Origin: an uncultured Gemmatimonadota bacterium
Lineage (GTDB): Bacteria > JAAXHH01
Reading direction: 5' to 3'
Length of the DNA stretch: 64,000 bases
Assembly (NCBI GenBank): GCA_951812955.1
Contig: OX638340.1
Location: 3,488,001 to 3,552,000, forward strand
Position numbers and translations under genes: made by a program. The notes beneath the pieces were generated by a model. The model saw nothing but the letters and a program-made list of their open reading frames with translations. It was not told the origin of the DNA and did not search any database. Shown piece by piece: positions 5,501 through 36,643 of this stretch; the first letter of the stretch is position 1; each line of letters starts with the position of its first letter.

Positions 5501-8500
5501 GGCACGAACTGGCTGAGTGACAGGCCGCTGAACGAGTGGTATGGGGTCGAGACCAACGCGGCGGGAAGGGTGACGGAACTGAGTCTTTTCGAAGTCGATG
5601 CAAACAACAGGCTAGTTCCCTACGGATTGTCGGGAAGCATTCCGCCGGAACTGGGCAACCTGAGCGAGTTGCAGGCACTGTATCTTCACGGCAACGAGTT
5701 GTCAGGCCGTATCCCGCCGCAACTGGGAAATCTGAGTAAACTTGTAGCCCTGGGCCTTTCCGAAAACGACTTGTCTGGCCGCATTCCGCCGGAACTGGGC
5801 AGTTTGAGTGAGCTAACACACCTGTGGCTTTATGGAAACCAGTTAACGGGCGGTGTCCCTTCGTCCCTGGGCAACCTGAGCAAACTGGAACGCCTGTATC
5901 TACATGCCAACAGCGGGCTTACCGGTCCCTTGCCTGATTCGTTCACCCAACTCAAACAACTGTTTCTACTGAGGCAGGACGGCACGGGCTTGTGCGTTCC
6001 GACAGACACCGCATTCCAGGAGTGGCTTGCTGGAATTCAAGTCAAGACAGGGGTGGTGAACTGCTCGACTCCCGACTCGGACGACCGTGCTGCCCTGATT
6101 GCGCTTTACAACGCCACCGACGGGCCGAACTGGCTTTTCAGCACGAACTGGCTGAGCGACAGGCCGCTCGAAGCGTGGTACGGGGTTACGACCGATGCGA
6201 CGGGTCGCGTTGTTCGGCTGAGTCTACCCGACAACCAGTTATCGGGTTCTATCCCCGCGCAACTGGGCAACCTGAGCAAGTTGAGAGATCTGACCTTGCG
6301 CAGCAACCCTTTATCGGGCCGTATCCCGCCTGAGTTGGGCAACCTGAACAACCTCGAACTGGTTGATTTTCAAGGCATCAGGTTTACGGGAAGTATCCCT
6401 CCGGAACTGGGTAACCTGACCAACCTGGAACATCTGTACATTACCTTCAGCCCGTTGTCAGGGAGTATCCCTCCAGAGTTGGGTAACATGACCAATCTGA
6501 AATCGCTCAACCTTTGGGGCAATCAGTTGTCAGGGCGTATTCCTTCTGAACTGGGCAACCTGACCAACCTGACATGGCTGGCTCTCAGCAACAATCAGTT
6601 GTCGGGCAGCATCCCTTCGGCCCTTGGCAACCTGAGCAATCTGCAAGGGTTGCTTCTTGACGGCAACTCCGCTCTGTCGGGTCCGCTTCCCGCTTCTTTC
6701 ACCGGTCTCGACCGGGTCGGGCGACTGGATCTTCTTGGTACGGGGCTGTGCGTGCCAACGGACGCAGCACTCCAGGCATGGCTCCAGGGGATCGGAACCA
6801 AGAGCGGTGTCGAGAACTGCACGCCCTCCGACTCGGACGACCGCGCCGCCCTGGTCGCCCTGTATAACGCGACCGACGGACCGAACTGGACGAGAAACGA
6901 CAACTGGCTGAGCGACCGGCCGCTGGGAGAGTGGTACGGGGTGACCACCGACTCTGAGGGTAGAGTGACACAGCTGCGGTTCGTAGGTGCAGATGGTTTA
7001 AGTGGCAACGGATTGTCGGGTTCGATCCCCCCGGAACTGGGAAGCCTGAGCGACCTGACATGGCTGAGCCTTCAGCATAACCAGTTGTCGGGCAGCATCC
7101 CTTCTACACTGGGAGACCTGAATAACCTGAGATGGCTGCAACTTTACAATAACCAGTTGTCAGGCAGCATCCCATCTGCACTGGGTAACCTGAGCAATCT
7201 GCAAGAGCTGACCCTTTACCGTAACCAGTTGTCGGGCAGCATCCCATCTGCGCTGGGCAACCTGGGCAACCTGCAAACCCTGGCTCTTAGAAACAACCAG
7301 TTGTCGGGCAGCATTCCATCTGCGCTGGGCAACCTGAGCAACCTGCAAACCCTGGATCTTCAAGTAAACACGGGCCTGACCGGTCCTCTGCCAGCCTCCC
7401 TCACAAATCTCGATGAACTGAATTACCTGTCTCTAAACGGCACAGGGTTGTGTGCACCGACGGAAGCGGCGTTCCAGTCATGGCTCGACGGGATACCAAA
7501 CAAGAGCGTTGTGGTGAACTGCTTCGTGGAGCAGGAAGACCGTGACGCCCTGGTCGCACTGTACAACGCCACGGATGGACCGAACTGGATGAACAACACG
7601 AACTGGCTGAGCGACGACCCGATTGGCAATTGGTACGGGGTGACCACCAACGCCGAAGGGAGGGTAACACGTCTTGGCCTGTACACTATAGTCAACAATA
7701 CATTTACCAGCAACGGTTTGTCCGGTCGCATCCCGCCGGAACTGGGCCGGCTGAGTAAGCTGGAAGTCCTTCGGCTTAGTCCAAACGAGTTGTCCGGTTC
7801 GATCCCGTCGGAGCTGAGCAACCTGAGCAACTTGACACGGCTTGAACTTGGCGGTAATGAGTTGTCGGGCAGCATTCCGCCGGAGTTGGGCAACCTGAGC
7901 AAACTGACAAGTCTGGGTCTTGCCGTCAATGAGTTGTCAGGTAGCATCCCGCCCGAGTTGGGTAATCTGACCAACCTGGAAGAATTGTATCTTCGCAACA
8001 ACACCGGCCTGTCGGGTCCTCTGCCCCATTCGTTCACTCATCTCGAAGATCTCAACGAACTGCTTATGGATGGAACGGGACTGTGCGTGCCGGCGGACGC
8101 CGAGTTTCAGGCGTGGCTAGACGGTATTCAAGGCAGGAAATGGGGGGTGGTGAATTGCGTCTCGCCTTCACCGGACCGTGACGCCCTGGTCGCACTGTAC
8201 AACGCCACGGATGGACCGAACTGGATGAACAACACGAACTGGCTGAGCGACAGGCCGATCGGAGAGTGGTACGGCGTGAGCGTAGACGCCGAAGGGAGCG
8301 TAACAAGCCTTCGCCTGTTCACTGATTCAACATCCAGCAACGCGTTTACCGGCAACGGGTTGTCGGGCAGCATCCCGCCGGAACTGGGTAACCTGGGCAG
8401 CTTACAATCGCTGGATCTTCGCTTCAACAGGTTGTCGGGGAGCATCCCTTCGGCCCTGGGCAACCTGGGGAACTTACAATCGCTGGATCTTCGCTTCAAT

Positions 8501-20381: not shown

Positions 20382-22145
20382 TTATTCGTCCGGACAGCCT
20401 GCTATTTCGCTCAAGTCCCCAATTTCGCTCAGCCAGTCCTGGAATACCTCGGATAGCGGTATGCATAGTTGGGTCCCATTCACGTGCAGGCTTTCCAGTG
20501 TGAGACGCGCAAGCGACTCGGGCAGAGGTCCGGTGAGTTCCGGGTTCGAGGCCACGTTGAGCCGAGTCAGATTGCGAAGCCCGCCGATTTCCGGCGGCAG
20601 CGATCCCATTAACCGGTTGGCCGATAGGTCCAGGTGGATGAGCGCTTGCAGTTGTCCGAATTCCGGGGGTATGGAGCCCGATAACGCGTTATCTCGAAGG
20701 ACAAGCATTTCGAGTGCTTTCAAAAGTTCAAGCTCCGCGGGAATGTGCCCGGTCAACTGGTTTCCACCGAGATTGAGTATTTCGAGACGCCCTGACAGAC
20801 CGATTTCCGCAGGTATGGTTCCCGTAAACTCGTTTCCTTCCAGGTTCAACGCTTCCAAAATGGTCAAATGACCGATTGAAAGCGGAATACTGCCGGAAAG
20901 ATGATTTTCGCCGAGGTTCAACACCGTGAGACCAACGAGTTGCCCGAGTTCATCCGGAAGCGGTCCGCGGAGACCGTTCCCGTTCAACTCCAGCCGGGTG
21001 ACCATGCCGTCGGCGTCGGTCGTGACGCCATACCACGCGTGGAGCGGGGCGTTGGACAGCCAGTTCGCCTTCTCTGTCCAGTCCGGTCCGCCCGTTGTAT
21101 TGTAAAACACAATGAGCGCATTCCGATCCGGACTTGAAACGACCGTTGTCACGTTGAAGTGCTGCGTGGCGCTCAAACCGTGCGGGTCGGTCGCGCTGAC
21201 CGAAATCGTCGCTCTGCCTGCCGATACGGATCGGATGGTGGTCCGTTCTTCCTTTGCTTCGACCGTGGCCACCTGGTCGTCGCTGGATACAGCCGTATAT
21301 TCCAGCTTGTCGCCATCCGGATCGAGAAACGCGCCGGATACGTCCAGCTCCTCCGCCGGTCCTCCCTCGACCAGCCTTAGATCTGCTATCATTCCCACCG
21401 TCTGTGGCCGGGTGTTCATCCCCGTCCCCATGACAGTGACGCGTATGGACTGCGTGGCGCTCAGGCTATCCGGATCGGTTGCCGTGACCGTCACGGTCGC
21501 TTCGCCGGTTGACACGGCACGGATGGTCACGTCGGCGCCGGATGCCGCCGCCGTGGCTACCTGGTCGTCGCTGGATTCCGCGGAATAGGTCAACTCGTCG
21601 TCGTCCGGGTCGCGGAAAGCGCCGGTAACGTCCAGCTCTACCGATACTCCGATTTCCGTCAGCACCTGTGGCGCGATCTCGCCCACTGCTTCCGGGGGCC
21701 GGTTTGGAACGGGCGCCGATACGGTCACCGTTATCCCGTTCGAGACGTTGCCCGAACGGGCGGTGATCCGGGCAGTGCCGTTGCTCACGGCCGTAACCAG
21801 ACCACCGGAACTCACGCTGGCTACACTCATGTTGCTGGATGACCAGGACACCGTCGCCCCAGTGATCGGACTGTTGTTCTGATCGTTAACCGTGGCGGTC
21901 AGTTGCGCCGTCTGACCCAGGGCGGTCAGCGTCACGGCAGCCGGTGTGATCCGGATACTGGTCGGTACAGCTTGTACCGGTGGCGGCGTTGGAGGCGGAG
22001 TGGGTGGTGGCGTTGGTGTTGGAGGCGGTGGAGCAGGCGGAGTGCCCGGCGACGTCGGTGTCGTCGAACCACCTCCGCCACACGAAACCAGTACCGAAAA
22101 GACCCATAATACGATAACTGATGAGATCAAGCGGGACGCATGCAA
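20382..22145 (-). CDS. Surface lipoprotein (587 aa): Pro-rich linker, BIG2, two cadherin-like domains, one LRRNT-like/LRR cassette plus Cys C-cap; immediately upstream of the CARDB-protease gene
   Basis: TTG start at 22145 with GGGAG upstream. Lipobox SVLVSCGGGG. PPTPTPPPTPPP linker. Motifs FRDPDDDELTY, ALIVFYNTTGGPDWTEKANWLSNAPLHAWYGV and GTQLCIPLSEVFQDWL. Confidence 0.8.
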   Translation of the reverse strand: MHASRLISSVIVLWVFSVLVSCGGGGSTTPTSPGTPPAPPPPTPTPPPTPPPTPPPVQAVPTSIRITPAAVTLTALGQTAQLTATVNDQNNSPITGATVSWSSSNMSVASVSSGGLVTAVSNGTARITARSGNVSNGITVTVSAPVPNRPPEAVGEIAPQVLTEIGVSVELDVTGAFRDPDDDELTYSAESSDDQVATAAASGADVTIRAVSTGEATVTVTATDPDSLSATQSIRVTVMGTGMNTRPQTVGMIADLRLVEGGPAEELDVSGAFLDPDGDKLEYTAVSSDDQVATVEAKEERTTIRSVSAGRATISVSATDPHGLSATQHFNVTTVVSSPDRNALIVFYNTTGGPDWTEKANWLSNAPLHAWYGVTTDADGMVTRLELNGNGLRGPLPDELGQLVGLTVLNLGENHLSGSIPLSIGHLTILEALNLEGNEFTGTIPAEIGLSGRLEILNLGGNQLTGHIPAELELLKALEMLVLRDNALSGSIPPEFGQLQALIHLDLSANRLMGSLPPEIGGLRNLTRLNVASNPELTGPLPESLARLTLESLHVNGTQLCIPLSEVFQDWLSEIGDLSEIAGCPDE

Positions 22146-22271
22146 AACCGGGTTACTCCCTGGTTTGTGTTCTCCGCAATGGTTGTAAGGATGATACGAA
22201 CATCATTACAGTATTACAACATTTAAAACAGTGAAACATTTGCATCATTATTTGAGCAATCTTGTTCTACA

Positions 22272-22859
22272 TCAGAATGTGAAACTGGCGCCCGCAAAAA
22301 CCATCGGGTTTCCTTTCTCGCGCAAGGTAACATCAATCCAGGGTCTTACATTCAACTGTCCGACTGTATTTGGTATGGGAATGGCAGCCCATTCCTGTCG
22401 ACGGATTAACGAACCGATGATAAGGCCACCGAGTCCAATACTGCCTCCCCCCGCGGCTGCTGACACCAAACCCACCTTGAATCCGAATGCATCGCATTCT
22501 TCTTCCACTGATCCGAAAGTCAGTAGATCGCAGCTCCCATGAGTAAGTGCACCGATCAGTATACCACCAGCAATGCCGATGCCGGCACCATAAACCAATC
22601 CTTCTTTCCAGTAACTTCGAGTACCCAGGCTCCGCTCCAGTTTCCGTATGTTTTCAAAGAGTACGAGCCGGGTTCTGTTGCCACCCTGGCTGATTTCAAA
22701 GCTACTGCTGCTCATTGACACGACAGTACCTGATACCGATCCTTCCAAAAACGTAACACGAAGGCGATCCCCAACATCCTGCGCAGAAAGAGTCGATGGA
22801 AAACCGGCAGTGAATACCCAAAGACAGGCGAAATAGAGGCATTTTCGTATACATTTCAT
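22272..22859 (-). CDS. Hypothetical secreted/outer-membrane protein with a glycine-zipper segment
   Basis: Internal ATG at 22859 with AGGAGA upstream. Signal MKCIRKCLYFACLWVFTAGFPSTLSAQ. Glycine zipper GAGIGIAGGILIGAL. Ends in F. Confidence 0.45.
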   Translation of the reverse strand: MKCIRKCLYFACLWVFTAGFPSTLSAQDVGDRLRVTFLEGSVSGTVVSMSSSSFEISQGGNRTRLVLFENIRKLERSLGTRSYWKEGLVYGAGIGIAGGILIGALTHGSCDLLTFGSVEEECDAFGFKVGLVSAAAGGGSIGLGGLIIGSLIRRQEWAAIPIPNTVGQLNVRPWIDVTLREKGNPMVFAGASFTF

Positions 22860-23024
22860 AATTCGGTCTCCTGTGCGTGGAAACATGAATATCCCGATAC
22901 CCCTTAACTGTCGCCACCATTGACAACGTCTACTTGTGATCCAAATTACCAGTGCCTGGCCAAATTTACGCATCCACATTGTGGTGGCAGGAAGCGGATG
23001 CGTAATTCGTTGGATGAAACCGTT

Positions 23025-23600
23025 CTACGGGGTAAACACAATGGACACGGTAATCGGCATCCACTGTGTGGCTGATTCTTCCGTCAATGCGTGATTGTAT
23101 CGGGCATCGATCGCAACTGAAATGGAAGGATTAACAGCATACTGAATACCGCCGCCAATAACAAAACTGAACGCATTCTCAGATTCACTGGCTGAGAATG
23201 TTTCACCAAGAAAGGACGCTGAGGCCGTTCCTTCCGCACGGGTCAACCCTAAACCTCCGAGCCCGTAAACGACTAATGGTGTCGATGAGGACCTTACCAT
23301 GACCCCGATATTCCCGCCGGTTAGTTTTGCATCTGCATCCAACCCGGGGATGTCTTCATCCGCACCGTACTTGCTATAGTGCCCTTCTGCCAACGCGTGC
23401 ACATTGTCCAGGATGGGCACCGAAACACCCCCAAGAATCGCAAAGCCCGCCTTCGCTCCATCACCAAAATCTCCTGTGGGAATACCCAACCCGCCACCTA
23501 CTTTAATCGATGGCGACCGCTCCTGAGCCTGCACTGTTTCGATCGTGGATAACGACAGCATGAGTACTGCGCCTAGTAGTGCGAAAATGAACTTTTTCAT
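23025..23600 (-). CDS. Small outer-membrane beta-barrel protein (OmpA/OmpW-like barrel)
   Basis: Signal MKKFIFALLGAVLMLSLSTIETVQAQ. Alternating hydrophobic/Gly-rich beta-strand pattern. GAGGTG RBS. Confidence 0.55.
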   Translation of the reverse strand: MKKFIFALLGAVLMLSLSTIETVQAQERSPSIKVGGGLGIPTGDFGDGAKAGFAILGGVSVPILDNVHALAEGHYSKYGADEDIPGLDADAKLTGGNIGVMVRSSSTPLVVYGLGGLGLTRAEGTASASFLGETFSASESENAFSFVIGGGIQYAVNPSISVAIDARYNHALTEESATQWMPITVSIVFTP

Positions 23601-24101
23601 TGAGCCACCTCTTTAGGATTGTAATTGAAATCGGTCTAGCTGTCTCAAACCGCAGACTTTCACCATGCACCCTCCTTTTGGGCCAACGGCACACTAATGT
23701 CCGGGTGAATATTTCTCATGGTGATCCAACTTTTTCGCTACAAATAAAAACTGTTATTATCTTTCGGAATGACCTTGATATGTAATAAACATAGATTATT
23801 TGCGATTTGAAAGCGGAATAACAGATTATAAACTCACTATTTTATGATCTTTTTGGAAATTATGTGTTTATTTATGATTATTGTTCAGGAAGGTATAATG
23901 AATTGGTTTACGAAGTACGGCGACCCTGTTATTTTGACTTATGAATATCCCTTGACGTGAATGTTCTTTAACATGAACGTTCTTTAACGTCCAACAAACC
24001 TTCTATCGCAGCTTCTTGCGGCCAGAAAATCTTCCGAATCACACTTGAGTATGAACCCGGGGCACATACCGGCAATTTGGAGTTGAAGAGGAGTAACGAA
24101 C
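23601..24101. promoter_or_regulatory. 500-bp AT-rich ORF-less region upstream of gene 24102. Contains the direct repeat TGAA(T/C)GTTCTTTAAC x2 (23957-23990) with the palindrome GAACGTTC.
   Basis: GC about 38% versus about 62% in flanking genes. Repeat read directly. Confidence 0.4.
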
Positions 24102-25250
24102 ATGATCAGACCGGGTAACAGGCTGCTGGTTTGGTTTCTGGTCTGCAGCTTCGTGTTTTTCGTTGTGGCAGTGATCGTGGAGGAGTTCGCGTTGTTCGAT
24201 TCCGAAGAGGAAATGCAGCGTGACGACGCATCTGGAGGCGTTTTTCAGCAAGAGGGCGCCGCGGATGGTCCGGTATCTGCAACCGCTTCGCGGATGGCGC
24301 GCGGTGACCATCCCGCGCTGACGAGCCGGCAATTGCGGCTGGTGTCGACGACGTGGCCGCCTTTCATCGACGCGCCTGGTAAACCACGGTTCGCCCTCGA
24401 ACTGGTCGACGCGGCCCTGGAACGCATGGGAATCGGCGCCCAGGCGATCGTTCTGGACGAGGGCGAGTTGTCGTCCGCGTTGCTGAACGGGGCGTTCGAC
24501 GGAAGCGCGGCGGTCTGGAAGGACGAAGCGCGCGAGGGTTCGATGCTTTACTCAAAGCCGTATCTCGAGAACCGATTGATACTCGTCGGCCGAGGAGGCA
24601 GTGACGTGTCCGCCACCTCGCTGTCCGGACTCGCAGGAATCAGGATCGCCCTGGCCGACGGGCACGCGTACGCCGAAATGGCAGAACAAACAGACGGGCC
24701 GGTTTTCATCCGCTCGGACAGCGATGAGGACAGCGTCGCCAAACTGCTCGACGGCGAGGTGGATTACGCGCTGATGGATGACCTGGTCGTCCAGTACCTC
24801 ATCAGCAAACACGGAGAAGAAGCGCGATCTCGGCTGGTGTTCGGTACGGCGCCTCTGCTCAACCGTTCGCTTCACCTCGCCGTCCGCCGGTCGCTTCCTG
24901 ACGCCGATTCGATCATCTCGCGATTCGACGCCGAGGTGCGTGCCATGATGGCCGACCGGACCTATCACCGCCTGCTCCTGCTCGACTGGATTCGAACGGA
25001 CGTCGATGGCGACGGTCTCGTGGAGAACCTGCCGCACGCTAATCGGACCGGTCCGGATCCGCCGGAGCACATCTACGAACTCTTCCTTTCGGGCGGTCCC
25101 TCCATGGAACCGGGTATGGCGCAGCGATTCTACCTGGACGGAGATATCTACGAAGATTGGTCGGCCGTGCCAGTACAGTACAAGACCTTGGACTCCGGCG
25201 GACCCGACCCCGATCCACGCACCGTCAACACATTCAGCTTCGTGTGGTAG
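24102..25250 (+). CDS. Membrane-anchored solute-binding protein, family 3 (SBP_bac_3-like)
   Basis: N-terminal TM anchor MIRPGNRLLVWFLVCSFVFFVVAVIV. Body resembles a periplasmic amino-acid-type binding fold (LVSTTWPPFIDAPG...DYALMDDLVVQYLI). GAGGAG RBS. Confidence 0.5.
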   Translation: MIRPGNRLLVWFLVCSFVFFVVAVIVEEFALFDSEEEMQRDDASGGVFQQEGAADGPVSATASRMARGDHPALTSRQLRLVSTTWPPFIDAPGKPRFALELVDAALERMGIGAQAIVLDEGELSSALLNGAFDGSAAVWKDEAREGSMLYSKPYLENRLILVGRGGSDVSATSLSGLAGIRIALADGHAYAEMAEQTDGPVFIRSDSDEDSVAKLLDGEVDYALMDDLVVQYLISKHGEEARSRLVFGTAPLLNRSLHLAVRRSLPDADSIISRFDAEVRAMMADRTYHRLLLLDWIRTDVDGDGLVENLPHANRTGPDPPEHIYELFLSGGPSMEPGMAQRFYLDGDIYEDWSAVPVQYKTLDSGGPDPDPRTVNTFSFVW

Positions 25251-28756: not shown

Positions 28757-28829
28757 CCTGCCCATCCTTGTACGCCGCAACCACTGCTATCATGTGACGA
28801 AGCCCGTTGGGCAGACCACCCGCCCGCAT

Positions 28830-31580
28830 CTAGAACATGAACCCGACGAACAGATACTGGCCGATCTTGTCCTTGCCTTGCATCATCGCCACGCTCAACG
28901 TCGCACGCCGCTCGGCAAAGGAAACCCAGAGCCCGCCGCCCCTGGCGAAATGCCAGTCATCGGCCTCCCGGGGGTCGTCCGCAAAGAATACCCGTCCCGC
29001 GTCGACGGCGGCGAACACGCCGAGTTCACCGGGAACCAGGAACTTGATTCGAGTCAGCCGAAACCGGAACTCGCCGTTCCCGAATACCGCGGAATCCCCC
29101 GCAAATCGATACTTGAGGAATCCCCGCAGGTTGCCGGATCCCCCAATCGCGGCCGCTTCGTGGAAAGGGTACGCTCCAAGGACGGTTATGCCGCCCACGC
29201 GCAGGGCGAGGGTGGGGGAAGCGGGTACGTCAACTGACAGGTAGGTGGACGCCTCGCCGGCAACGTGGCCGAATACCGACTCCACGTCCCAAAGCGCAGG
29301 GTAGAGTTCGCCCGCGAGCCTTAACCGTACGCCCCGCATTGCATGGCCCGGATTGTCGCGGGTATCAAAATCGAGTTCTCCACGAACGCCGATCTGCCCG
29401 AAGCTTCCCGTCCCGTACAGTGGTGTTTCATAGGTGTTGATAAATTTGCCCTCGTTATTGTCCAACAAGGAGTTGGTTATCTTGACGATCGGTCCCCCCG
29501 CCAGATTCCACTTCCCATGAGTCGCCACGGAACCGGAGAAGGATAGCGCGGGCGCGAGAAAAAACTGCGCCTGATCCATCTCGTAGAACGGTTCGTCCTG
29601 CGCGAGGTCCACACCGTTGCCGAAGCCGTTGAAGCGAACCATGTTGATGCCGGAGTATCCCATGTCCAACTGACCGTCCAGGTTACGCAGCAAATGGCGG
29701 AACGTACCGGAATAGGAAACGAAGGGCTTTACTCCTCCCCGGGAGGCGATTCCGATGTCAATAGCATGCCGCGAGGCATACGGATCCTTTCGATAGCCAT
29801 AGTTTAACCGGTTGTAGCGCAGCCCCGTGTAAATCCCGGTATCAGAGGTATAGTTGACGATCGGCTTCGTGCCCGATACGGAGCCCCAGTCGAGTTTGTA
29901 CACGTCCTGCGAAATCGCGCTCTCGTTTCTTGGACGCCTGTACCGGCGCTCGTTGATATGCGCCCTGTTATCGTCGAAGCGGTTCTGCCCGCGCGCGTCG
30001 TAAAACCGCGTCATCCGCCGTCCGGACCGGGACCGGTTCGCGTAGGTGTCGTCACCGCCTCCACCGTCCACGTGAATCCTGATCCCGGCCCGCTCTCCGA
30101 TGACGGCGATCCGATCGTCCCCTCCATGCATGTAGATCCTGACTTCCTTTGTCTCGCGGGGATACAGGATACGGTGGAAGTAGGGGGCATTCTCCGTACC
30201 GGCCAGGCTGATACGAACTTCGAGCGCGCCGTCCTCCCGGTGTTCCAACTCGAGGTGTTCGTCCTCGTCCGTTCCCCTGATCTCGACCTTCCTGCTGATC
30301 AAGCCGTAGTACCGCGCCGCGAACTCGCCGAGTCGATCCCGGCGTACCTTCAACGTCCGGGTAAGGAAGTCCCCCACCTGCCGGTAGTACGGGTCCGGTA
30401 GCCGCCGGACGGCATCCTCGATCACCGGGTTCGACAATTCGGACTGGACCGTGGCGACCACCGCGTCCCACGCGCTCCACTCCAGTTCCGCCAGCAGCCT
30501 GCGGTCCAGTTCCCAGCCCGTGCGGGAGAGTCCCAGATGGTTTGGAAACTTCACCTGAAAGCGGACGAACTTGGGTTCGATACGGCGCACCAGTTTCATC
30601 AATTGGCCATCCAGATCGATAAACGCCTTGTCTCTGTCTTCGGGGACGGGCAACCACGTGTAGCAGTCCCCGACCGGAAACTGCGCCCAGCGCCATTGTC
30701 CCCGGTGCCGGTCCGAATCGCCGATGAGAAAATCGATGAGCCGCGCCTTGAGATAGGCCCGCGCGTCCACGCTTTCGCAGGGCGTCTCCTCGAGGCGTTC
30801 GTACAGTCTCTCCGAGCCGCTCACCCTGCGGGACCCGGCAAACCCCGGCTCGTTACCGGCGGCCTCGGACGGATGTTCCTGCAGGGTACCTATCAGTCCG
30901 GCATATTCCTCGCGAAACGATCCCAGCCTGGGATCATCGGGTATCACCAATAGCTTGTGCGGCGCGTGCAGAATGCCCGTTGCCTCCATCAGAGCATCCA
31001 CCACAAGGCCCGCCGCCGGCAGATGGGCGCTCACGAGATCCTGGATCACGTCCTCGACGACGGTGTCCTTGAGCTCCTCCAACAGCCGCTTGGACGGATC
31101 CTTGTCGATGGAGCGCACCGTGTAACGGCGGCCGTCATTGCCAATAAAGTGCAATGAAATGGACTGGCCGGCGCCGCCCGGCCGCATGGGCGACAATCCG
31201 CCGCCAACTTCATCGAGATCGAGGACCGGAAGCTCGACCGGTGTCGTCCAAAGCTGCCGGTAGTTTTTGCCATAAACCCACTGTCCGTAACTACTTGCCC
31301 TGAATCTTCCTCCCGGTACGGCCGTATGCGTCGAGTCGCCCATCTCGGGGATTGAACGGTGAATCAACTGACCAGCCCGGTTCGCCTCGCTTGCTTGGCC
31401 TTCTTGACCTGCCTGGCCTGGCTGATCTGCTTGATCTGTCTGGCCTGTCTGACCTGCCTGCCCTTCCTGGCCTGCCTGCGCCGCTGCCGAATCAGTACCC
31501 GCAAAAGACAGAACGATTACAGGGAGAGCAATGATCCACCAAAACTTGCAGGGATGGAACAAGCGCACGTTGAGGTTCAT
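28830..31580 (-). CDS. Outer-membrane protein: signal peptide, Q/G-rich repeats, a central domain with a PI3/PI4-kinase-like D..IGDSDRH motif, C-terminal Omp85/surface-antigen-like beta-barrel
   Basis: Start taken as the ATG at 31580 with AGGAGA RBS. Signal MNLNVRLFHPCKFWWIIALPVIVLSFAGTDSAAAQA. Repeat AGQEGQAGQTGQTDQADQPGQAGQEGQ. Motif LIDFLIGDSDRHRGQWRW. The C-terminus has alternating beta-strands and ends ...YLFVGFMF. Confidence 0.5.
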   Translation of the reverse strand: MNLNVRLFHPCKFWWIIALPVIVLSFAGTDSAAAQAGQEGQAGQTGQTDQADQPGQAGQEGQASEANRAGQLIHRSIPEMGDSTHTAVPGGRFRASSYGQWVYGKNYRQLWTTPVELPVLDLDEVGGGLSPMRPGGAGQSISLHFIGNDGRRYTVRSIDKDPSKRLLEELKDTVVEDVIQDLVSAHLPAAGLVVDALMEATGILHAPHKLLVIPDDPRLGSFREEYAGLIGTLQEHPSEAAGNEPGFAGSRRVSGSERLYERLEETPCESVDARAYLKARLIDFLIGDSDRHRGQWRWAQFPVGDCYTWLPVPEDRDKAFIDLDGQLMKLVRRIEPKFVRFQVKFPNHLGLSRTGWELDRRLLAELEWSAWDAVVATVQSELSNPVIEDAVRRLPDPYYRQVGDFLTRTLKVRRDRLGEFAARYYGLISRKVEIRGTDEDEHLELEHREDGALEVRISLAGTENAPYFHRILYPRETKEVRIYMHGGDDRIAVIGERAGIRIHVDGGGGDDTYANRSRSGRRMTRFYDARGQNRFDDNRAHINERRYRRPRNESAISQDVYKLDWGSVSGTKPIVNYTSDTGIYTGLRYNRLNYGYRKDPYASRHAIDIGIASRGGVKPFVSYSGTFRHLLRNLDGQLDMGYSGINMVRFNGFGNGVDLAQDEPFYEMDQAQFFLAPALSFSGSVATHGKWNLAGGPIVKITNSLLDNNEGKFINTYETPLYGTGSFGQIGVRGELDFDTRDNPGHAMRGVRLRLAGELYPALWDVESVFGHVAGEASTYLSVDVPASPTLALRVGGITVLGAYPFHEAAAIGGSGNLRGFLKYRFAGDSAVFGNGEFRFRLTRIKFLVPGELGVFAAVDAGRVFFADDPREADDWHFARGGGLWVSFAERRATLSVAMMQGKDKIGQYLFVGFMF

Positions 31581-31909
31581 TTCAGTCTCCTGGTCTATAC
31601 CTTCAAATAGGCTGGATCCAGTTAACATGAATGATCTATGATTCTTGTAGCGTTACGTCCTTACAGTAGTTTAACGTCGACAGGCAACACAGGGAAGTGT
31701 TACTTACAAGCGTACCACAAACACAACATTTTATGAAGACCGGATGAGGTTTGTCGCGCCGATGAGCGGTCTCATGCCCACCTGGCCGCAGGATACGGTG
31801 AAACTTGACCGGGCGTCGCAGACGCCTTTTCTTTGAATACACACCGTTTTCGAACCATCCCGGTGATTTCATGGACAGTCACCGCCAACACCAACACCTG
31901 GAGCGAAAG

Positions 31910-32524
31910 ATGATCGGAAAACTACGCCATGTCGTTTCGCAGTTGATGATGACCTCCATGCCGATACGTATGATCTCCGTGCCACTGCTGCTAACCGGGT
32001 TTATGATGTGGTCGGTTGTTGGCTGCGCGGAGACTGCGCAGGACGCATCGTCGGATCCGCAGGAGGCTCCTCAGCCGCCCGCGATGTCCGCGGTGCCGGA
32101 TGTGCCTGAGGCGGCATCGCCACCGGCCATGCCTTCGCACGAGCCGGTCTACCTCACCTCGGAGGCCACGGAGAGCATGAACCTGCCCTTTTCGGATGCC
32201 GTGCGCACGGGGCACCTGCTGTTCCTCTCCGGCCAGATCGGAATGGTACCCGAAACGAAGGAACTGGCGCCGGGGGGCATACAGGCAGAGGCCCGTCAGA
32301 CCATGGAAAACATAAAGACGGTGCTCGAGGCCAACGGATCCTCCATGGACCGGGTGATCAAGGCGACGGTCATGCTCGCGGACATCTCCGAGTGGCCGGC
32401 ATTCAACGAGGTGTACGTCACGTACTTTCCCGGCCACAAGCCGGCCCGCAGCGCCTTCGCCGGCAGCGGACTGGCCTTCGGCGCGCGGTGCGAAGTCGAG
32501 GTGATCGCCACGGTGGGAGAGTAG
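31910..32524 (+). CDS. ridA: RidA/YjgF (endoribonuclease L-PSP) family protein with an N-terminal lipoprotein-type signal
   Basis: VRTGHLLFLSGQIGMVPETKELAPGGIQAEARQTMENIKTVLEANG...VKATVMLADISEWPAFNEVYVTYF matches RidA-family signatures. Lipobox MWSVVGC. Alternative starts exist at 31871 and 31949. Confidence 0.7.
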   Translation: MIGKLRHVVSQLMMTSMPIRMISVPLLLTGFMMWSVVGCAETAQDASSDPQEAPQPPAMSAVPDVPEAASPPAMPSHEPVYLTSEATESMNLPFSDAVRTGHLLFLSGQIGMVPETKELAPGGIQAEARQTMENIKTVLEANGSSMDRVIKATVMLADISEWPAFNEVYVTYFPGHKPARSAFAGSGLAFGARCEVEVIATVGE

Positions 32525-32525
32525 G

Positions 32526-32555
32526 AAAGATCAATAGCCATGGCCAAAGGAAAGT
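32526..32555. repeat. Left copy of a perfect 30-bp direct repeat AAAGATCAATAGCCATGGCCAAAGGAAAGT
   Basis: Identical to 32941-32970. This copy retains an orphan ATG (32540) opening a 15-codon ORF, MAKGKCGCLPPLCDY. Confidence 0.9.
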
Positions 32556-32940
32556 GTGGATGTTTGCCACCTCTCTGTGATTATTGATTCAGTTAAATGA
32601 TCGTTGAGTGATTCGAGAAAACCACCAATGCGCCGACTAATCATAAACACACATCACTCGTTTCCGGATGGCAATTGGCTAAGCCATATCCAATCTCATC
32701 ACCGGGCTCGGCGAATTGGAACTGATCGAATTCCTATCATCGTTTTTAAATATCGTGAAAGATGCCGTTCAGGCTGGAAAGGCGGTGTATGATATGTCAA
32801 AATCAGGAAAGAAATCCGCACCCAACGAATCGGAACTCGACCGGGAATACAAGTCACTGATGGACGACCATAGGCGGGTACTGCGCAAGATCGAACGCAT
32901 CGTCGACGCGAAGGCGAAAGAGCAAGGTATCTCTTTCAAT
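32556..32940. mobile_element. About 385-bp low-GC insert (415 bp counting one repeat copy) bounded by the perfect 30-bp direct repeats; carries one small ORF
   Basis: GC is roughly 45% versus about 62% in the flanks. The duplicated 30-mer contains the Shine-Dalgarno/ATG/first 5 codons of the ykgJ-like gene. No recombinase is encoded. Confidence 0.35.
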
Positions 32941-32952
32941 AAAGATCAATAG
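32716..32952 (+). CDS. Small hypothetical protein (78 aa, charged/coiled-coil-like) encoded inside the insert
   Basis: ORF MELIEFLSSFLNIVKDAVQAGKAVYDMSKSGKK...; its stop TAG lies inside the right repeat copy. Confidence 0.3.
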   Translation: MELIEFLSSFLNIVKDAVQAGKAVYDMSKSGKKSAPNESELDREYKSLMDDHRRVLRKIERIVDAKAKEQGISFNKDQ

Positions 32953-32970
32953 CCATGGCCAAAGGAAAGT
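32941..32970. repeat. Right copy of the perfect 30-bp direct repeat; contains the functional start (32955) of the ykgJ-like gene
   Basis: Identical to 32526-32555. Confidence 0.9.
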
Positions 32971-33419
32971 ACTGGCACGACGGATTGCAGTTCTCCTGTC
33001 AGGGATGCGGCCACTGCTGCACCTTCCCGGGTGGATTCGTATACGGCAGCGAGAAGGAGTTCCGGCGCATTGCCGAGTACCTGGACCTGCCGTTCGAGAC
33101 CTTCCTGGAACGGTACACGGAAGAAATCGACGGCCATGTCTCCCTGGTGTCCCCGGATAACGGTCCCTGCGTCTTCTATGACGGGGAATGTACCATCTAT
33201 CCGGTGCGTCCGTCCCAGTGCAGCAGCTATCCCTTCTGGCAGGATATCCTGAAGTCGAAACGCCGGTGGGAACGGGAAGCGGAGACGTGCAGGGGCATGG
33301 AAAAGGGGAAGCGCTGGACGCGCAAGGAGATCGAGGTGGAAGCGGCAAGCCGGACGGAGAACCTGATGGCGGCGAAGAAGCGGCCGCAGTCCGAACCGAG
33401 GGAGGACGTACATGGATGA
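32955..33419 (+). CDS. YkgJ-family cysteine-cluster protein (CxxCxxCC motif)
   Basis: FSCQGCGHCCTFPGGFVYGSEKEF ... CVFYDGECTIYPVRPSQCSSYPFW. The stop overlaps the next start (ATGGATGA). Confidence 0.6.
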   Translation: MAKGKYWHDGLQFSCQGCGHCCTFPGGFVYGSEKEFRRIAEYLDLPFETFLERYTEEIDGHVSLVSPDNGPCVFYDGECTIYPVRPSQCSSYPFWQDILKSKRRWEREAETCRGMEKGKRWTRKEIEVEAASRTENLMAAKKRPQSEPREDVHG

Positions 33420-34791
33420 GCGCATCACGGTTGGAAATGATCGCATCGACACGGTCGAAAATGATCGATTCGACGAAGAAACCGGTTCACGGCGGTTTAA
33501 TCGGCGTGGCTTTCTGAAGATCGGCGCCCTGGCCGGGGTCGCGGGCGTGGCTGCTGCGAATTGTAGCGGCCTGGACGGGTCAGGGAGTGATGCGGGAGGT
33601 GATGAAAGCGCCGCGACCGGCGTTTCTTCGGACCCGGAAGCCGTGGCGGCCGATTTGCAGCAAAATGTCTATACACGAATGCTCGGCGTACGGCCCCACA
33701 TCGGCGCGCACTCGCACCTGTCCAGCATGGGAGGTTCCCGCATGCCGCCGGAAGTCATGGAGGCGATGACCGAGGCCAACCGTTTCTTTGTGGATATGGA
33801 AGACCTGCACGTAGCCGCCGGGCGCCGTCTCGCGGAAATCGCGGGCGCCGAGGATGCCCTCGTATCATCCGGCGCCTTCGCCGCGTTGCTTGTAGGCGCG
33901 GCCGGGGTCCTTACCGGGACCGACGAGGAACGCATGGCGGTCCTGCCCCGTCCGACCTGGCCGAAGGTCGAATGCCTTTTTCAAACGCCGCACCGGTTTT
34001 TCTACGACAAGGTCTTTCAATACGCGGGCATGACCCTGGTGGAAGCAGATACCAGGCAGGCGTACGAAGAGGCCATCACGGACCGAACGGCCCTGCTCGT
34101 GGGACTGTCCTTCATCGAGCATCAGAACACGGGGCGGCCGCCGTTTCCCGCGAAGTACCGCCAGCCCACGCCGCCGGAAACGCTCATGCCGGAGGAGATC
34201 ATCGAAATCGGAAAGCGGAAGGGCGTGCCGGTCATGATCGACATGGCTTCCGACGTGCGTCCCATCAGAAACCTGAAGCGCTATATCGAGATGGGGGCCG
34301 ACCTGGTCATCGTCAGCGGCGGCAAGGCGTTGCGGGGCCCCAATTCGTCGGGCATACTGGCAGGCCGCGGAGATCTGATCGAAGCCGCGCGGATGCAGAA
34401 TGCGCCGAACAACGGCATCGGGCGGGGACTCAAGGTCGGCAAGGAGGAGATCATCGGTCTCATCGCCGCGGTGGAGCGGTTCGTCGAGATCGACGAAGAC
34501 GCAATGATCGCAGGTTGGAACCAGAAGGCCCAGTGGCTGGCGGACCAGCTCCAGGATATCTCCGGACTCGAAGCCAGTTACGAGATCAATACGGCCGGGT
34601 ATGCCGACGTGGAACTGATCTGGGACCAGGAGGTCATTCCCCTTTCCCGGGAAGACGTCGACAGCGCGCTTAAGGATGGGACTCCGAGCATCATCTACTA
34701 CGGGGAAGGTATCTGCACCAAGCAGTTCGAAGACGGCGAGGAGGTCCTCGTCGCCAATCGCCTACGGGAACTCTTTACGCAGGGTAGCTGA
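33412..34791 (+). CDS. SelA-like (L-seryl-tRNA(Sec) selenium transferase fold) PLP-dependent enzyme with a twin-arginine (Tat) signal peptide
   Basis: Tat motif SRRFNRRGFLKIGALAGVAGVAAA. SelA-like lysine region DLVIVSGGKALRGPNSSGILAGRGDLIEAAR. GGGAGG RBS. Confidence 0.55.
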   Translation: MDERITVGNDRIDTVENDRFDEETGSRRFNRRGFLKIGALAGVAGVAAANCSGLDGSGSDAGGDESAATGVSSDPEAVAADLQQNVYTRMLGVRPHIGAHSHLSSMGGSRMPPEVMEAMTEANRFFVDMEDLHVAAGRRLAEIAGAEDALVSSGAFAALLVGAAGVLTGTDEERMAVLPRPTWPKVECLFQTPHRFFYDKVFQYAGMTLVEADTRQAYEEAITDRTALLVGLSFIEHQNTGRPPFPAKYRQPTPPETLMPEEIIEIGKRKGVPVMIDMASDVRPIRNLKRYIEMGADLVIVSGGKALRGPNSSGILAGRGDLIEAARMQNAPNNGIGRGLKVGKEEIIGLIAAVERFVEIDEDAMIAGWNQKAQWLADQLQDISGLEASYEINTAGYADVELIWDQEVIPLSREDVDSALKDGTPSIIYYGEGICTKQFEDGEEVLVANRLRELFTQGS

Positions 34792-34805
34792 CGGAAAGGG
34801 CGTAA

Positions 34806-36014
34806 ATGGCTGATGATCGACCTGACAGTGCAGGATCCGACTTCGACGGCTCCGGCGGCGAACGCCTGACTTATGAAAGTTCCGGTGTGGATTACGACCG
34901 GATAGATCCGCTGAAGGTCCTCGCCCAGCGCGCGGCGCGGGACACGGGGGCCAACCTCGACGGCGCGGGCGCCCGCGAGGTGGCGGCCAGCCGTGGGGAG
35001 TCGGCGTACGTGGTGGACATCGGCGACGCCTATCTCGCCTCCATCACCGAATGCCTGGGTACCAAGGCCCTGGTGGCGGACGCGATGTGTGAGGCGTCGA
35101 GTGTATTGAGGGCGTCAGAGGAGTCGGAGGAGTCAAAGGCGTCGGAGGCGTCGCGAAGGACCTGGTACGACCACATCGCACAGGACACCATCGCCACGGC
35201 CGTCAACGACATTGTCACCGTGGGCGCCCGGCCCCTGAGCATCCACGCCTACTGGGCGGCCGGTTCGTCGGACTGGTTCGACGACGTGGAACGCATGAAC
35301 GACCTGGTCGAGGGATGGAAGGCGGCCTGCGACGTCCTGGGCGTGGCCTGGGGCGGCGGCGAGACGCCGTGCCTGACGGGCGTGGTGGAGGAAGGCGCCA
35401 TCGACCTGGCCGCGTCCTGCGTGGGCATCATCCGGCCTAAATCACGCCTCACCCTGGGCGAAGACCTCAGCGCCGGGGACGCGATCATTCTCCTGGAAAG
35501 CAGTGGCATTCACGCCAACGGCCTCACCCTCGCGCGCAAGCTGTCCGAACGGCTGCCGGAGGGCTATGCCACCCTCCTGCCCGGCGGCCGGACGTACGGC
35601 GTGGCGCTGCTCGACCCGACCGTGCTCTACCCTCCCGTTACCGAAGCGGCCTTCGCGGCCGGTATCGACCTGCGCTACATCGCCAACATCACCGGCCACG
35701 GATGGCGCAAGATCATGCGACACCCCGGCAGGTTTACCTACCGCATTACCGAAGTGCCCCCCGTTCCCGAGGTGCTGAAGTTCATGGTGGATGAGACCCA
35801 ACAGACCGCGGAAGAAGCCTATGGCAGCCTCAACATGGGCGCCGGCTTCGCCCTCTTCGTCCGCCCGGAAGACGGGGACGCGGCCGTGGCGTGCGCCGAG
35901 ACCGAAGGCATCCGCGCTTGGGTCGCCGGCGTGGTGGAAGATGGCCCCCGCCAGGTGGTCATCGAGCCGCTGGGCGTTACGCTCGCCGGGGAAAGCCTCG
36001 CCCTGCGGGACTGA
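34806..36014 (+). CDS. AIR-synthase-related (PurM/SelD/HypE/ThiL-fold) protein
   Basis: N-terminal SGVDYDRIDPLK and DIGDAYLASITECLGTKALVA. C-terminal-domain motifs GDAIILLESSGIHANGLTLARK and NITGHGW. The last 15 coding nt plus the stop lie inside the repeat at 36003. Confidence 0.6.
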   Translation: MADDRPDSAGSDFDGSGGERLTYESSGVDYDRIDPLKVLAQRAARDTGANLDGAGAREVAASRGESAYVVDIGDAYLASITECLGTKALVADAMCEASSVLRASEESEESKASEASRRTWYDHIAQDTIATAVNDIVTVGARPLSIHAYWAAGSSDWFDDVERMNDLVEGWKAACDVLGVAWGGGETPCLTGVVEEGAIDLAASCVGIIRPKSRLTLGEDLSAGDAIILLESSGIHANGLTLARKLSERLPEGYATLLPGGRTYGVALLDPTVLYPPVTEAAFAAGIDLRYIANITGHGWRKIMRHPGRFTYRITEVPPVPEVLKFMVDETQQTAEEAYGSLNMGAGFALFVRPEDGDAAVACAETEGIRAWVAGVVEDGPRQVVIEPLGVTLAGESLALRD

Positions 36015-36070
36015 GCCGCGGGCTGACTTCTCTGGTCGAATCCTCTATTCTCTACGATTCTATAATCCAG
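36003..36070. repeat. Left copy of an imperfect direct repeat (core CCCTGCGGGACTGAG ... TCTGG.TGAATCCT.TATT) shared with 50243-50300
   Basis: 15/15-nt identical core plus about 20 further matching positions. Overlaps the stop codon of the PurM-like gene. Confidence 0.45.
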
Positions 36071-36643
36071 CGTAACTCAGTGCTTTTAACCATACGGAAC
36101 CGCTGATCGACTCGGTTGTTCGGTCGAGAGGTATCGTTTGAGTCCGTTGAACGTACGATCACGTTGAAAATGGTGTCGCTCTGGATGCTTACGAGACTGT
36201 TTTCGACCTTGAACGAGTCTGGAACGAGCCGCTTTGCCCTTCGTCCGCATAGGCCTTGTCACCGTAGATCGCCTTCCCTGGACGGTCAGTTTTATTGACG
36301 CGGACTTCGCGGGGCATTGACACCTGCCTGGGTTGACCTTGTCGAAAGCCCGGATCTGCCACGAATCCCGCTTTACTACCGTCAGTAAGACTTAGTACCC
36401 CCTCCCCTAATATACTGTACGCGCCCTATCCGTTTGTTTACAATATAATCATATTTAATTCTTATAATTTCACATTTAAGCCACGAGTTATTGATCTTAG
36501 ATTTGATAAGTTAAGACTCCAGCGTTAGTATTATGTTGAAAAATCCAGTTTGATTCACATATTGAATTTATCAATCTCTGAAACAACTGACCCGTTCGTT
36601 TGTGAATACAGGGGCAGCATTTTCTTCCAAAGAATGTACCTCG
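36071..36643. promoter_or_regulatory. AT-rich promoter/leader region, paralogous to 2206-2536
   Basis: Low GC, no ORF. Shared strings CACGAATCCCGCTT(C/T)ACTA and ...GTAC(T/C)TCGATG before the start codon. Confidence 0.4.

Follow-up and report, generated by a model that had tools for sequence, protein, structure and literature searches.

Does a long perfect direct repeat around low-GC DNA record the arrival of a mobile element, or can a resident gene leave the same trace? The question arises at the junction between a RidA-like gene and a YkgJ-like operon in a 64,000-nt stretch of an uncultured Gemmatimonadota bacterium (contig OX638340.1, positions 3,488,001 to 3,552,000; here called the window), where a small gene that we call X is bracketed by two identical copies of a 30-nt sequence, R. 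The first-pass annotation of this DNA had interpreted the structure as a site-specific insertion of either a miniature mobile element or an integrated cassette. We favor a different history, to which we assign a probability of roughly two in three (0.68): X is an old, low-GC resident of the locus that was recently duplicated locally in tandem, after which unequal crossover and a left-side deletion produced the arrangement RidA-R-X-R, with the left R as a stub. A duplication of this kind is an ordinary form of genome rearrangement, here at an unusually variable spot.

The direct repeat and the gene between its copies

The features around the repeat are as follows, in window coordinates.

31910-32524, plus strand: RidA-like gene (Ribonuc_L-PSP; Pfam PF01042, E = 1.5e-29), with its TAG stop codon at 32522-32524
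32526-32555, plus strand: left repeat copy (R-left), in which 14 nt from the end of an X unit (AAAGATCAATAGCC, that is, KDQ and stop plus CC) are followed by the opening 16 nt of the YkgJ-like gene
32540-32587, plus strand: 15-codon mini-open reading frame (MAKGKCGCLPPLCDY, then stop) and pseudo-start created by R-left, with the ATG at 32540
32556-32715, plus strand: 5' region of X, with the motif CGAGAAAACCACCAATGCGCCGACTAAT at 32614-32641 and a broken N-terminal extension (ATG at 32668, in-frame TAA at 32680-32682)
32716-32952, plus strand: small gene X, 78 amino acids from a TTG start, ending in KDQ and a stop inside the right repeat, 2 nt before the YkgJ start
32941-32970, plus strand: right repeat copy (R-right), the native X/YkgJ junction, with the X stop codon and the functional start and first five codons of the YkgJ-like gene
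32955-33419, plus strand: YkgJ-like CxxCxxCC gene (PF03692, E = 2.4e-12), first gene of the downstream operon, conserved in 20 genome loci

The two copies of R (AAAGATCAATAGCCATGGCCAAAGGAAAGT) are 100% identical (30/30), exactly where the first-pass annotation had placed them, with 415 nt from start to start and 385 nt in between. When up to 3 mismatches were allowed, these two were the sole matches in the 64-kb window, against 0 expected from 100 shuffles. The gene layout that had been described also agreed with the list of open reading frames (ORFs): the RidA stop, the orphan left start with its 15-codon ORF and the 78-amino-acid ORF are all present, and the real YkgJ-like gene does begin in the right copy, at 32955, with its translation-initiation region intact. 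The same arrangement and the same perfect repeat, with single-nucleotide polymorphisms (SNPs) relative to the window, were found in L001, an independent hifiasm long-read contig from another sample.

Written as an array, the locus amounts to 1.07 copies (a 445-nt region) of a 415-nt unit that consists of the X 5' region, X and the first 16 nt of YkgJ. Read in this way, R-left would be the stub of a lost upstream tandem unit. The R1 copies in the related locus L002, which are homologous to R-left, have drifted (GAAGATCAATAGCCATGGCTAGAGGAAAGT). The mini-ORF is probably a by-product, because neither its sequence nor its length is conserved in L002, where we found MARGKCGCLPTHCDY followed by a stop and a 23-codon version. 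The junction seen at R-right, AAAGATCAATAG[C/T]C ATG, is also present in relatives that have no left repeat. We propose that R-right keeps the YkgJ initiation region intact and that R-left is an inert decoy start.

The GC content of the 385 nt between the repeat copies is 46.5% (0.465). The window as a whole has 59.1% and the flanking genes have ~0.60-0.68, and only 2.4% of the 385-nt windows within the 64 kb have a GC content this low. The low value reported by the first-pass annotation is therefore real, as is a low GC content at third codon positions (GC3) in X (0.56, versus 0.75-0.84 in neighboring genes). However, ~46% GC is typical of other intergenic DNA in the window (0.458 at 36015-36601), so that low GC by itself is no mark of foreign DNA.

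To judge from its codon substitutions, X is a real protein-coding gene, and it is under purifying selection: the median dN/dS over its core (~59-66 codons) is 0.25, at a mean dS of 0.52 (64 pairs). The N-terminal extension is intact in L002, where it gives a 94-amino-acid protein (P0001). In the window, the in-frame TAA at 32680-32682 means that the product would be either the 78-amino-acid form from the TTG start or a 52-amino-acid form from the ATG at 32794 (P0006), which is the version picked by the gene caller. Exact-sequence look-ups matched P0006 and gave no match for the 154- and 78-amino-acid products of the window. AlphaFold placed helices at residues 2-30 and 38-69 (mean pLDDT, 77.5), so that X is predicted to form a two-helix hairpin.

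A homology check of the 78-amino-acid ORF, which the first-pass annotation had called for, returned 17 homologs among 5.8 billion protein clusters, none with a functional name and one labeled as a Gemmatimonadetes metagenome-assembled genome (MAG). A profile search of 1.84e9 representative proteins yielded ~4 true relatives. X is an orphan family restricted to a clade of sponge-type Latescibacterota/Gemmatimonadota MAGs. Pfam and PHROG scans gave no family above threshold, and the attempt to assign by this route a function to X or to Y, Z and W, the other small ORFs described below, was dropped, as it produced nothing beyond subthreshold coiled-coil noise. In the alignment of X homologs (A1), columns 67-73 hold an indel of 7 residues (21 nt), RSLVSDH, that repeats in tandem the SLMADH(R/K) heptad before it. 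Forms with and without it are dispersed across the X tree, so that gain or loss of the repeat apparently happened on more than one occasion.

The RidA/YkgJ slot in related genomes

We fetched 34 related loci (L001 to L034), comprising 20 species-level genome loci, 5 metagenome loci and 9 loci reached via exact-protein look-ups. The related records are sponge-type MAGs that carry the label Latescibacterota or Gemmatimonadota; complete chromosomes from long reads are numerous among them. Throughout these loci, the order of the RidA, YkgJ-like, SelA-like and AIRS-like genes is conserved, while the short stretch between RidA and YkgJ is hypervariable. The states of this slot, in which TM denotes transmembrane, are listed below.

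L021, L022: RidA and YkgJ overlap (TGATG)
L019: RidA-YkgJ gap of 31 nt, without X or R
L007, L028, L029, L032, L033, L034: full X unit (conserved upstream motif, N-terminal part and core), no left repeat
L020 (early-branching): X with a stop of its own, separated from YkgJ by a 57-nt spacer
L009; L005/L010; L004/L025/L030: X left-truncated to differing extents, the 3' end next to the YkgJ start always kept
L011: decayed 3' stub of X alone
L014: last 14 nt of X alone
L006, L008, L013: another small TM/coiled-coil ORF, Y
L012, L018: another small TM/coiled-coil ORF, W
L003, L016: Y, an X remnant and Z
Window, L001: R-X-R
L002: R-Xa-R-Xb-R
L004, and L024, L026 and L027 as far as their contigs extend: dXb-R-Xa-R

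R-flanked X units are thus found in the window's own subclade only. The full unit without a left repeat is the widespread state (six loci), and this distribution, together with the presence of X in early-branching L020, identifies X as an old resident and not a recent arrival. X is also faithful to its place, lying in the RidA/YkgJ-like neighborhood in all of the fetched loci that hold it (27/27, the window not counted). The idea of an insertion module survives in part: the segment is discrete and variable at exactly this site (0, 1 or 2 copies), but it is not an insertion footprint. The relatives did not show a two-copy arrangement with high-GC intervening DNA either, the pattern that the first-pass annotation had set against an insertion, and what they point to is a third option.

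An empty site was found in one relative, as had been suggested. L014 lacks X and reads gagTAGG/AAAGATCAATAGCCatg (the slash marks the junction), so that its RidA junction is identical to the left junction of the window; the empty site as a whole reads gagTAGGAAAGATCAATAGCCatg. The L014 flanks are 95-97% identical to those of its sister L009 and 86-93% identical to those of the window clade. Import of the junction from a window-like lineage was rejected for tracts of at least 150 nt, since the flanks are closest to L009. We also rejected the possibility that the sequence downstream of RidA in the loci with a full X unit is an ancient decayed R, the relic of an old target-site duplication: semiglobal alignment with 2,000 shuffles gave p > 0.7 in five of the six loci and 0.04 in L007. 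In L023, the most distant relative, the 171-nt RidA-YkgJ spacer (5830-6000) holds a long GC-rich palindrome (…GCCCGCAGGAGCGGGCTCCTGC…GGAGCCCGCTCCTGCGGGCG…) reminiscent of repetitive extragenic palindromic (REP) sequences.

Tandem duplication and its alternatives

L002 carries two of the units head to tail, with spacings of 415 and 436 nt and ~88% identity, each ending in an R-like 30-mer. Units are of two types, a (short) and b (with an extra heptad), and the two types together are monophyletic with respect to the X genes of all other lineages (bootstrap, 0.97; 180 columns). Since a and b are sister paralogs, they arose by duplication in place and were not separately imported as cassettes. L025 corresponds to unit 1 of L004 at its left end, including the RidA junction, and switches at TAAATAT to unit 2 of L004. 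The switch point is within the coding sequence of X, so the crossover that removed one unit took place there and not at R. In the alignment, both L002 units share one type of 5' region despite their a and b cores, and the a-type unit of L004 has another 5' region, a mosaic that would fit recombination between units. The window and L001 share 99% identity over the unit and 97-99% over the flanking genes; as it is as conserved as its flanks, the unit was inherited together with them.

L003 and L016 contain an independent duplication of the X-end/YkgJ-start sequence, 46 nt in length and with a period of 1,576 nt, with RidA between the copies. Its boundaries differ from those of R, which speaks against a fixed recombination site. 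In these loci (L003, 3926-4194 and 5725-5770; L016, 4414-4522), the 46-nt duplication follows a decaying, 5'-truncated copy of X upstream of RidA. RidA and two small genes lie between the 46-nt copies, and the duplicated YkgJ ATG of L016 shares the reading frame of RidA. L003 also has a remnant of X, at 5387-5427, with Y on one side and Z on the other.

We propose the following history. The distribution given above shows that X already separated the RidA-like gene from the YkgJ-like operon when the subclade of the window arose. In the ancestor of that subclade, a segment beginning with the X 5' region and extending to nucleotide 16 of YkgJ would have been duplicated head to tail, with a right breakpoint in YkgJ codon 6, as a result of which every unit ends in the 30-nt X-end/YkgJ-start sequence. 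Unequal homologous recombination between units, along with left-side deletions, would then have changed the number and order of copies, and an a-b-a or b-a-b intermediate would explain why the order is a-b in L002 and b-a in L004. In the window and L001, a single full unit would have survived, and of the lost unit upstream of it just the final 30 nt, which are fused 1 nt after the RidA stop. In favor of this history, independent left-side truncations that keep the 3' end at the YkgJ start are seen in L005/L010, L009, L004/L025/L030, L011 and L014. We infer the order of events and the mechanism at the duplication breakpoint, and likewise that the recombination was general (RecA type or microhomology type) and not site specific. 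The proposed scheme follows the general model established for bacteria, in which a duplication first forms at a short junction and unequal crossing-over then acts on it (PMC1428787).

The locus resembles bacterial tandem duplication and amplification through RecA-dependent unequal crossing-over in its head-to-tail units, in the novel junction that joins YkgJ nucleotide 16 to the unit start, in a copy number that ranges from 0 to 2 among close relatives and in units that homogenize and recombine, L025 having lost one by crossover within the repeat. It differs in that the unit of the window clade is tiny (415 nt) and the arrays are old (units ~12% diverged), with no transient selected amplification. 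It also differs in that the boundary falls inside the first codons of the downstream gene, so that each unit carries a decoy initiation region, and in that the window retains a 30-nt stub and no full second copy.

Several observations weigh against this history. It requires a second event, a deletion that removed all of the first unit except its final 30 nt, and a two-unit array with native RidA-downstream sequence was not clearly seen among the fetched loci, although L004 may be one. L014 independently formed the identical RidA/AAAGATCAATAGCC junction, with no convincing microhomology, so that the same junction seems to have arisen twice, and such recurrence of the RidA/R junction hints at a preferred site. 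The copies of R are perfectly identical in the window and L001, while the three in L002 differ at 2-4 positions, so that a recent crossover or conversion must be assumed. The possible microhomology at the original junction (GGAAWGT/TGGC) is weak and was identified by eye from a comparison of YkgJ (GGAAAGT/ACTGGCAC) with the sequence upstream of the L007 unit (GGAATGTAGG/GTGGCTTGTCAC). A Tandem Repeats Finder (TRF) run did not call the 415-nt period. Finally, the low GC3 of X does not fit well with a long-resident gene.

The hallmarks of known mobile elements were sought at the locus. The 385 nt between the repeats encode X alone. No terminal inverted repeats (TIRs) were found at the unit ends (seed, 6; minimum length, 8), and the sole inverted pair linking the ends is an 8-nt palindrome (GCCATGGC) inside both copies of R. 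The unit is like a miniature inverted-repeat transposable element (MITE) or other miniature nonautonomous transposon in its size (~400 nt), its low GC content and its flanking direct repeats. Unlike such elements, it lacks TIRs, occupies a single locus, encodes a protein under purifying selection and has a 30-nt repeat that is far longer than typical target-site duplications, which measure ~2-15 bp. A MITE or insertion sequence (IS) was rejected for the lack of TIRs and for the single locus in the window, the fetched loci and the viral, phage and plasmid data.

No attC-like imperfect palindrome was found in the unit, the boundaries of which read AAAGT/GTGGATG and AAAGT/ACTGG and not GTTRRRY. 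When compared with a dif-like 28-nt site (two ~11-nt arms and a 6-nt spacer), R showed just the central 8-nt palindrome. The cumulative GC skew of the 64-kb window showed no trend change and no terminus-like turn near 32.5 kb, which makes a dif-type site unlikely. A Pfam scan of 10 neighboring genes (~12.4-40.3 kb; the largest ORFs further away lie outside the scan) found no recombinase or integrase; it returned LRR/Big_2, SBP_bac_3, DUF4956, SdiA-regulated, Metallophos and PPC domains, and three proteins had no match. An integron cassette or an integrative mobile element exploiting Xer (IMEX) was ruled out by this lack of attC- or dif-like structure, of an integrase among the scanned neighbors and of a terminus-like skew change.

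Phage or plasmid origin was ruled out as well, as there was no DNA match in 50,697 phage or 72,556 plasmid records and X had 0 relatives in IMG/VR. The further copies of the insert that the first-pass annotation had suggested looking for did not turn up in the 64-kb window, in the viral, phage and plasmid data or, as dispersed copies, among the fetched loci (which are loci, not whole genomes). With no TIRs, attC or nearby recombinase in the genes scanned, and with X always at this locus, the interpretation as a site-specific insertion of a miniature element or cassette was not sustained.

A site-directed process might still act on R by way of a recombinase encoded elsewhere. R would then be an att-like site overlapping the YkgJ initiation region, and a 415-nt circle of X plus R would enter an empty R, such as that of L014, and excise again, as integron cassettes or the Xer-dependent IMEX do. 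We consider this unlikely, although it accounts for the perfect 30-nt flanking identity, for the exact empty site of L014 with its independently arisen copy of the window's left junction, for the swapped order of units in L002 and L004, for the atypical GC3 of X and for the filling of the same slot by the unrelated small ORFs X, Y, Z and W in different species. An identical core on both sides of a unit and an empty site are what att-type elements display, but the pair is not specific to them, as a tandem-duplication stub looks alike.

Integrative elements that duplicate an att core, such as tRNA-gene-targeting islands, share with this locus the identical direct repeats around a compositionally atypical segment, the repeat that rebuilds the end of the target gene (here the 5' end) and leaves the gene intact, and the empty site in a relative. 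Here, in contrast, there is no integrase, the cargo is only 385 nt and did not turn up as an element of its own or at a different site, and in most relatives it comes without a left repeat. The likeness to integron gene cassettes lies in small single-ORF modules, variable in number and order, stacked head to tail upstream of a fixed point; the differences are that no attC palindrome, GTTRRRY core, intI or attI was found and that the stacked modules are paralogs of one gene, each with its own conserved upstream motif. Besides the missing recombinase and attC-like or inverted-repeat structure and the unchanged skew, exchange at R is made less likely by the confinement of X to the RidA/YkgJ locus in the data searched, by the six loci in which a full unit has neither a left R nor a decayed R downstream of RidA, by the loss of a unit inside X in L025, by the different (46-nt) boundaries in L003/L016 and by the sister relationship of the a and b units.

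On a broader view of the same kind, which we hold to be improbable, the RidA/YkgJ junction would be a dedicated slot for the small membrane/coiled-coil genes X, Y, Z and W, a process with a preference for R would add, stack, reorder and remove them, and the recurrence of the RidA/R junction in L014 and the window subclade would be the footprint of an unrecognized site-directed recombination activity encoded elsewhere in the symbiont genomes. Reacquisition by transformation is another doubtful candidate. A lineage that had lost X, with an L014-like RidA-R-YkgJ arrangement, would have taken up an X unit again, with a relative as donor, through homology-facilitated illegitimate recombination. The right end of the join would be anchored in YkgJ and the left end would be illegitimate, after YkgJ codon 5, which would create the 30-nt duplication in one step. 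The L014-type intermediate exists, X has a low GC3, and the mosaic divergence along the locus between close relatives (73-99%) indicates frequent recombination in the population. However, the window and L001 differ as much in the flanks as in the unit, units a and b group with one another and not with X of any sampled donor lineage, and a later duplication in place would still be needed for the two-unit arrays, so that the scheme is no more economical.

It is very improbable that the structure is an assembly artifact, a spurious de Bruijn loop through a shared 30-mer. The repeat length does equal k-1 for a common k-mer size (k = 31), but the independent long-read contig L001, with its SNPs, has the same structure, and SPAdes, JGI and long-read assemblies contain related arrays with one or two units (multiunit in L002, L004, L024, L026 and L027). 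Local tandem duplication of a resident X, followed by loss of all but the end of the left unit, remains the history that we favor.

The upstream motif and the neighboring genes

The motif upstream of X (CGAGAAAACCACCAATGCGCCGACTAAT) is unique in the window. In the general form CGAGAA(A/T)-N13-15-CCGACT(A/G)AT (CGAGAAA-N13-15-CCGACTAAT), it precedes not only X but also the unrelated small TM/coiled-coil ORFs Y and W, and Z is the exception among the slot ORFs. The same motif stands before a further TM and heptad-repeat ORF downstream of the AIRS gene in L001 (7459-7755), L002 and L011, and the equivalent intergenic region of the window (36015-36600) lacks it. The sites are as follows.

Window: 32614-32641
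L006: 5705-5734
L003: 4998-5025
L012: 5506-5534
L018: 5589-5616
L001: 7228-7256
L002: 7866-7894
L011: 9314-9341

On this distribution, the motif is a candidate for a shared promoter or regulon signal of small membrane proteins. Part of it (CCAATGCGCCGA, 32625-32636) has 12-nt complementarity to the region of the X TTG start (TCGGCGAATTGG, 32708-32719), which could be a start-occluding stem or a coincidence. Both complementary arms are invariant in 8 loci, which gives no covariation, the minimum free energy (MFE) of the fold is no better than that of shuffles (z = +0.56), and neither the 5' region nor the rest of the unit matched an Rfam family.

Downstream of YkgJ, the operon continues with two genes.

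33412-34791, plus strand: SelA-like pyridoxal phosphate (PLP) enzyme gene (Pfam match), syntenic across all loci
34806-36014, plus strand: AIR-synthase-related (AIRS-like) protein gene (Pfam match), syntenic across all loci

On the other side, the RidA-like gene lies directly upstream of the slot in every relative whose contig reaches that far; its mechanical ORF starts at 31805, and the ATG conserved among relatives is that at 31910. The RidA-like protein (31910-32524) has a hydrophobic, signal- or lipoprotein-like, low-complexity N terminus, followed by a Pro/Ala-rich linker, and the SelA-like enzyme (33412-34791) has a weak match to a twin-arginine translocation (TAT) signal (E = 0.036). 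The two features together hint that products of the operon may be exported. The 5' end of the SelA-like gene (33426-33473) contains a 24-nt tandem duplication (CACGGTTGGAAATGATCGCATCGA; two copies, 83% identity) that encodes the repeated sequence ...GNDRID/ENDRFD... and is also present in L001 and L002. In the early-branching L020 (6488-9298) and L021 (6542-9274), two tandem SelA-like paralogs follow YkgJ, compared with one in the window.

An Omp85-family gene on the minus strand contains 9-nt periodic repeats of the CTGNCCTGC type (window, ~31360-31480; L001, 2569-2670), which encode a low-complexity (Q/T)(A/D)GQ tract near the N terminus, with a length that varies among relatives. When positions 28800-36100 of the window were compared with L001, the 3' third of the Omp85 gene was 73-83% identical and most other parts were 90-99% identical, a mosaic suggestive of recombination among related lineages. 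Between an LRR/Big_2 protein gene and a solute-binding protein gene lies the window's largest low-GC stretch (22050-24235, ~45-50%), which contains two minus-strand ORFs (23025-23600, 191 amino acids, and 22272-22979, 235 amino acids) with signal-peptide-like N termini and, by eye, a beta-barrel-like character.

These results remove a false lead, in that a long perfect direct repeat around low-GC DNA is here read as a tandem-duplication stub, and they advise caution in automated insertion calling. If the recurrent junction were site directed, it would represent a new cassette-exchange mechanism, which is unlikely on current evidence. For uncultivated sponge-associated bacteria, the locus documents an unannotated orphan family of small proteins under purifying selection, an operon (RidA, YkgJ-like, SelA-like and AIRS-like) that is conserved apart from a hypervariable slot within it and a conserved upstream motif that is common to several small membrane/coiled-coil genes and may define a regulon.

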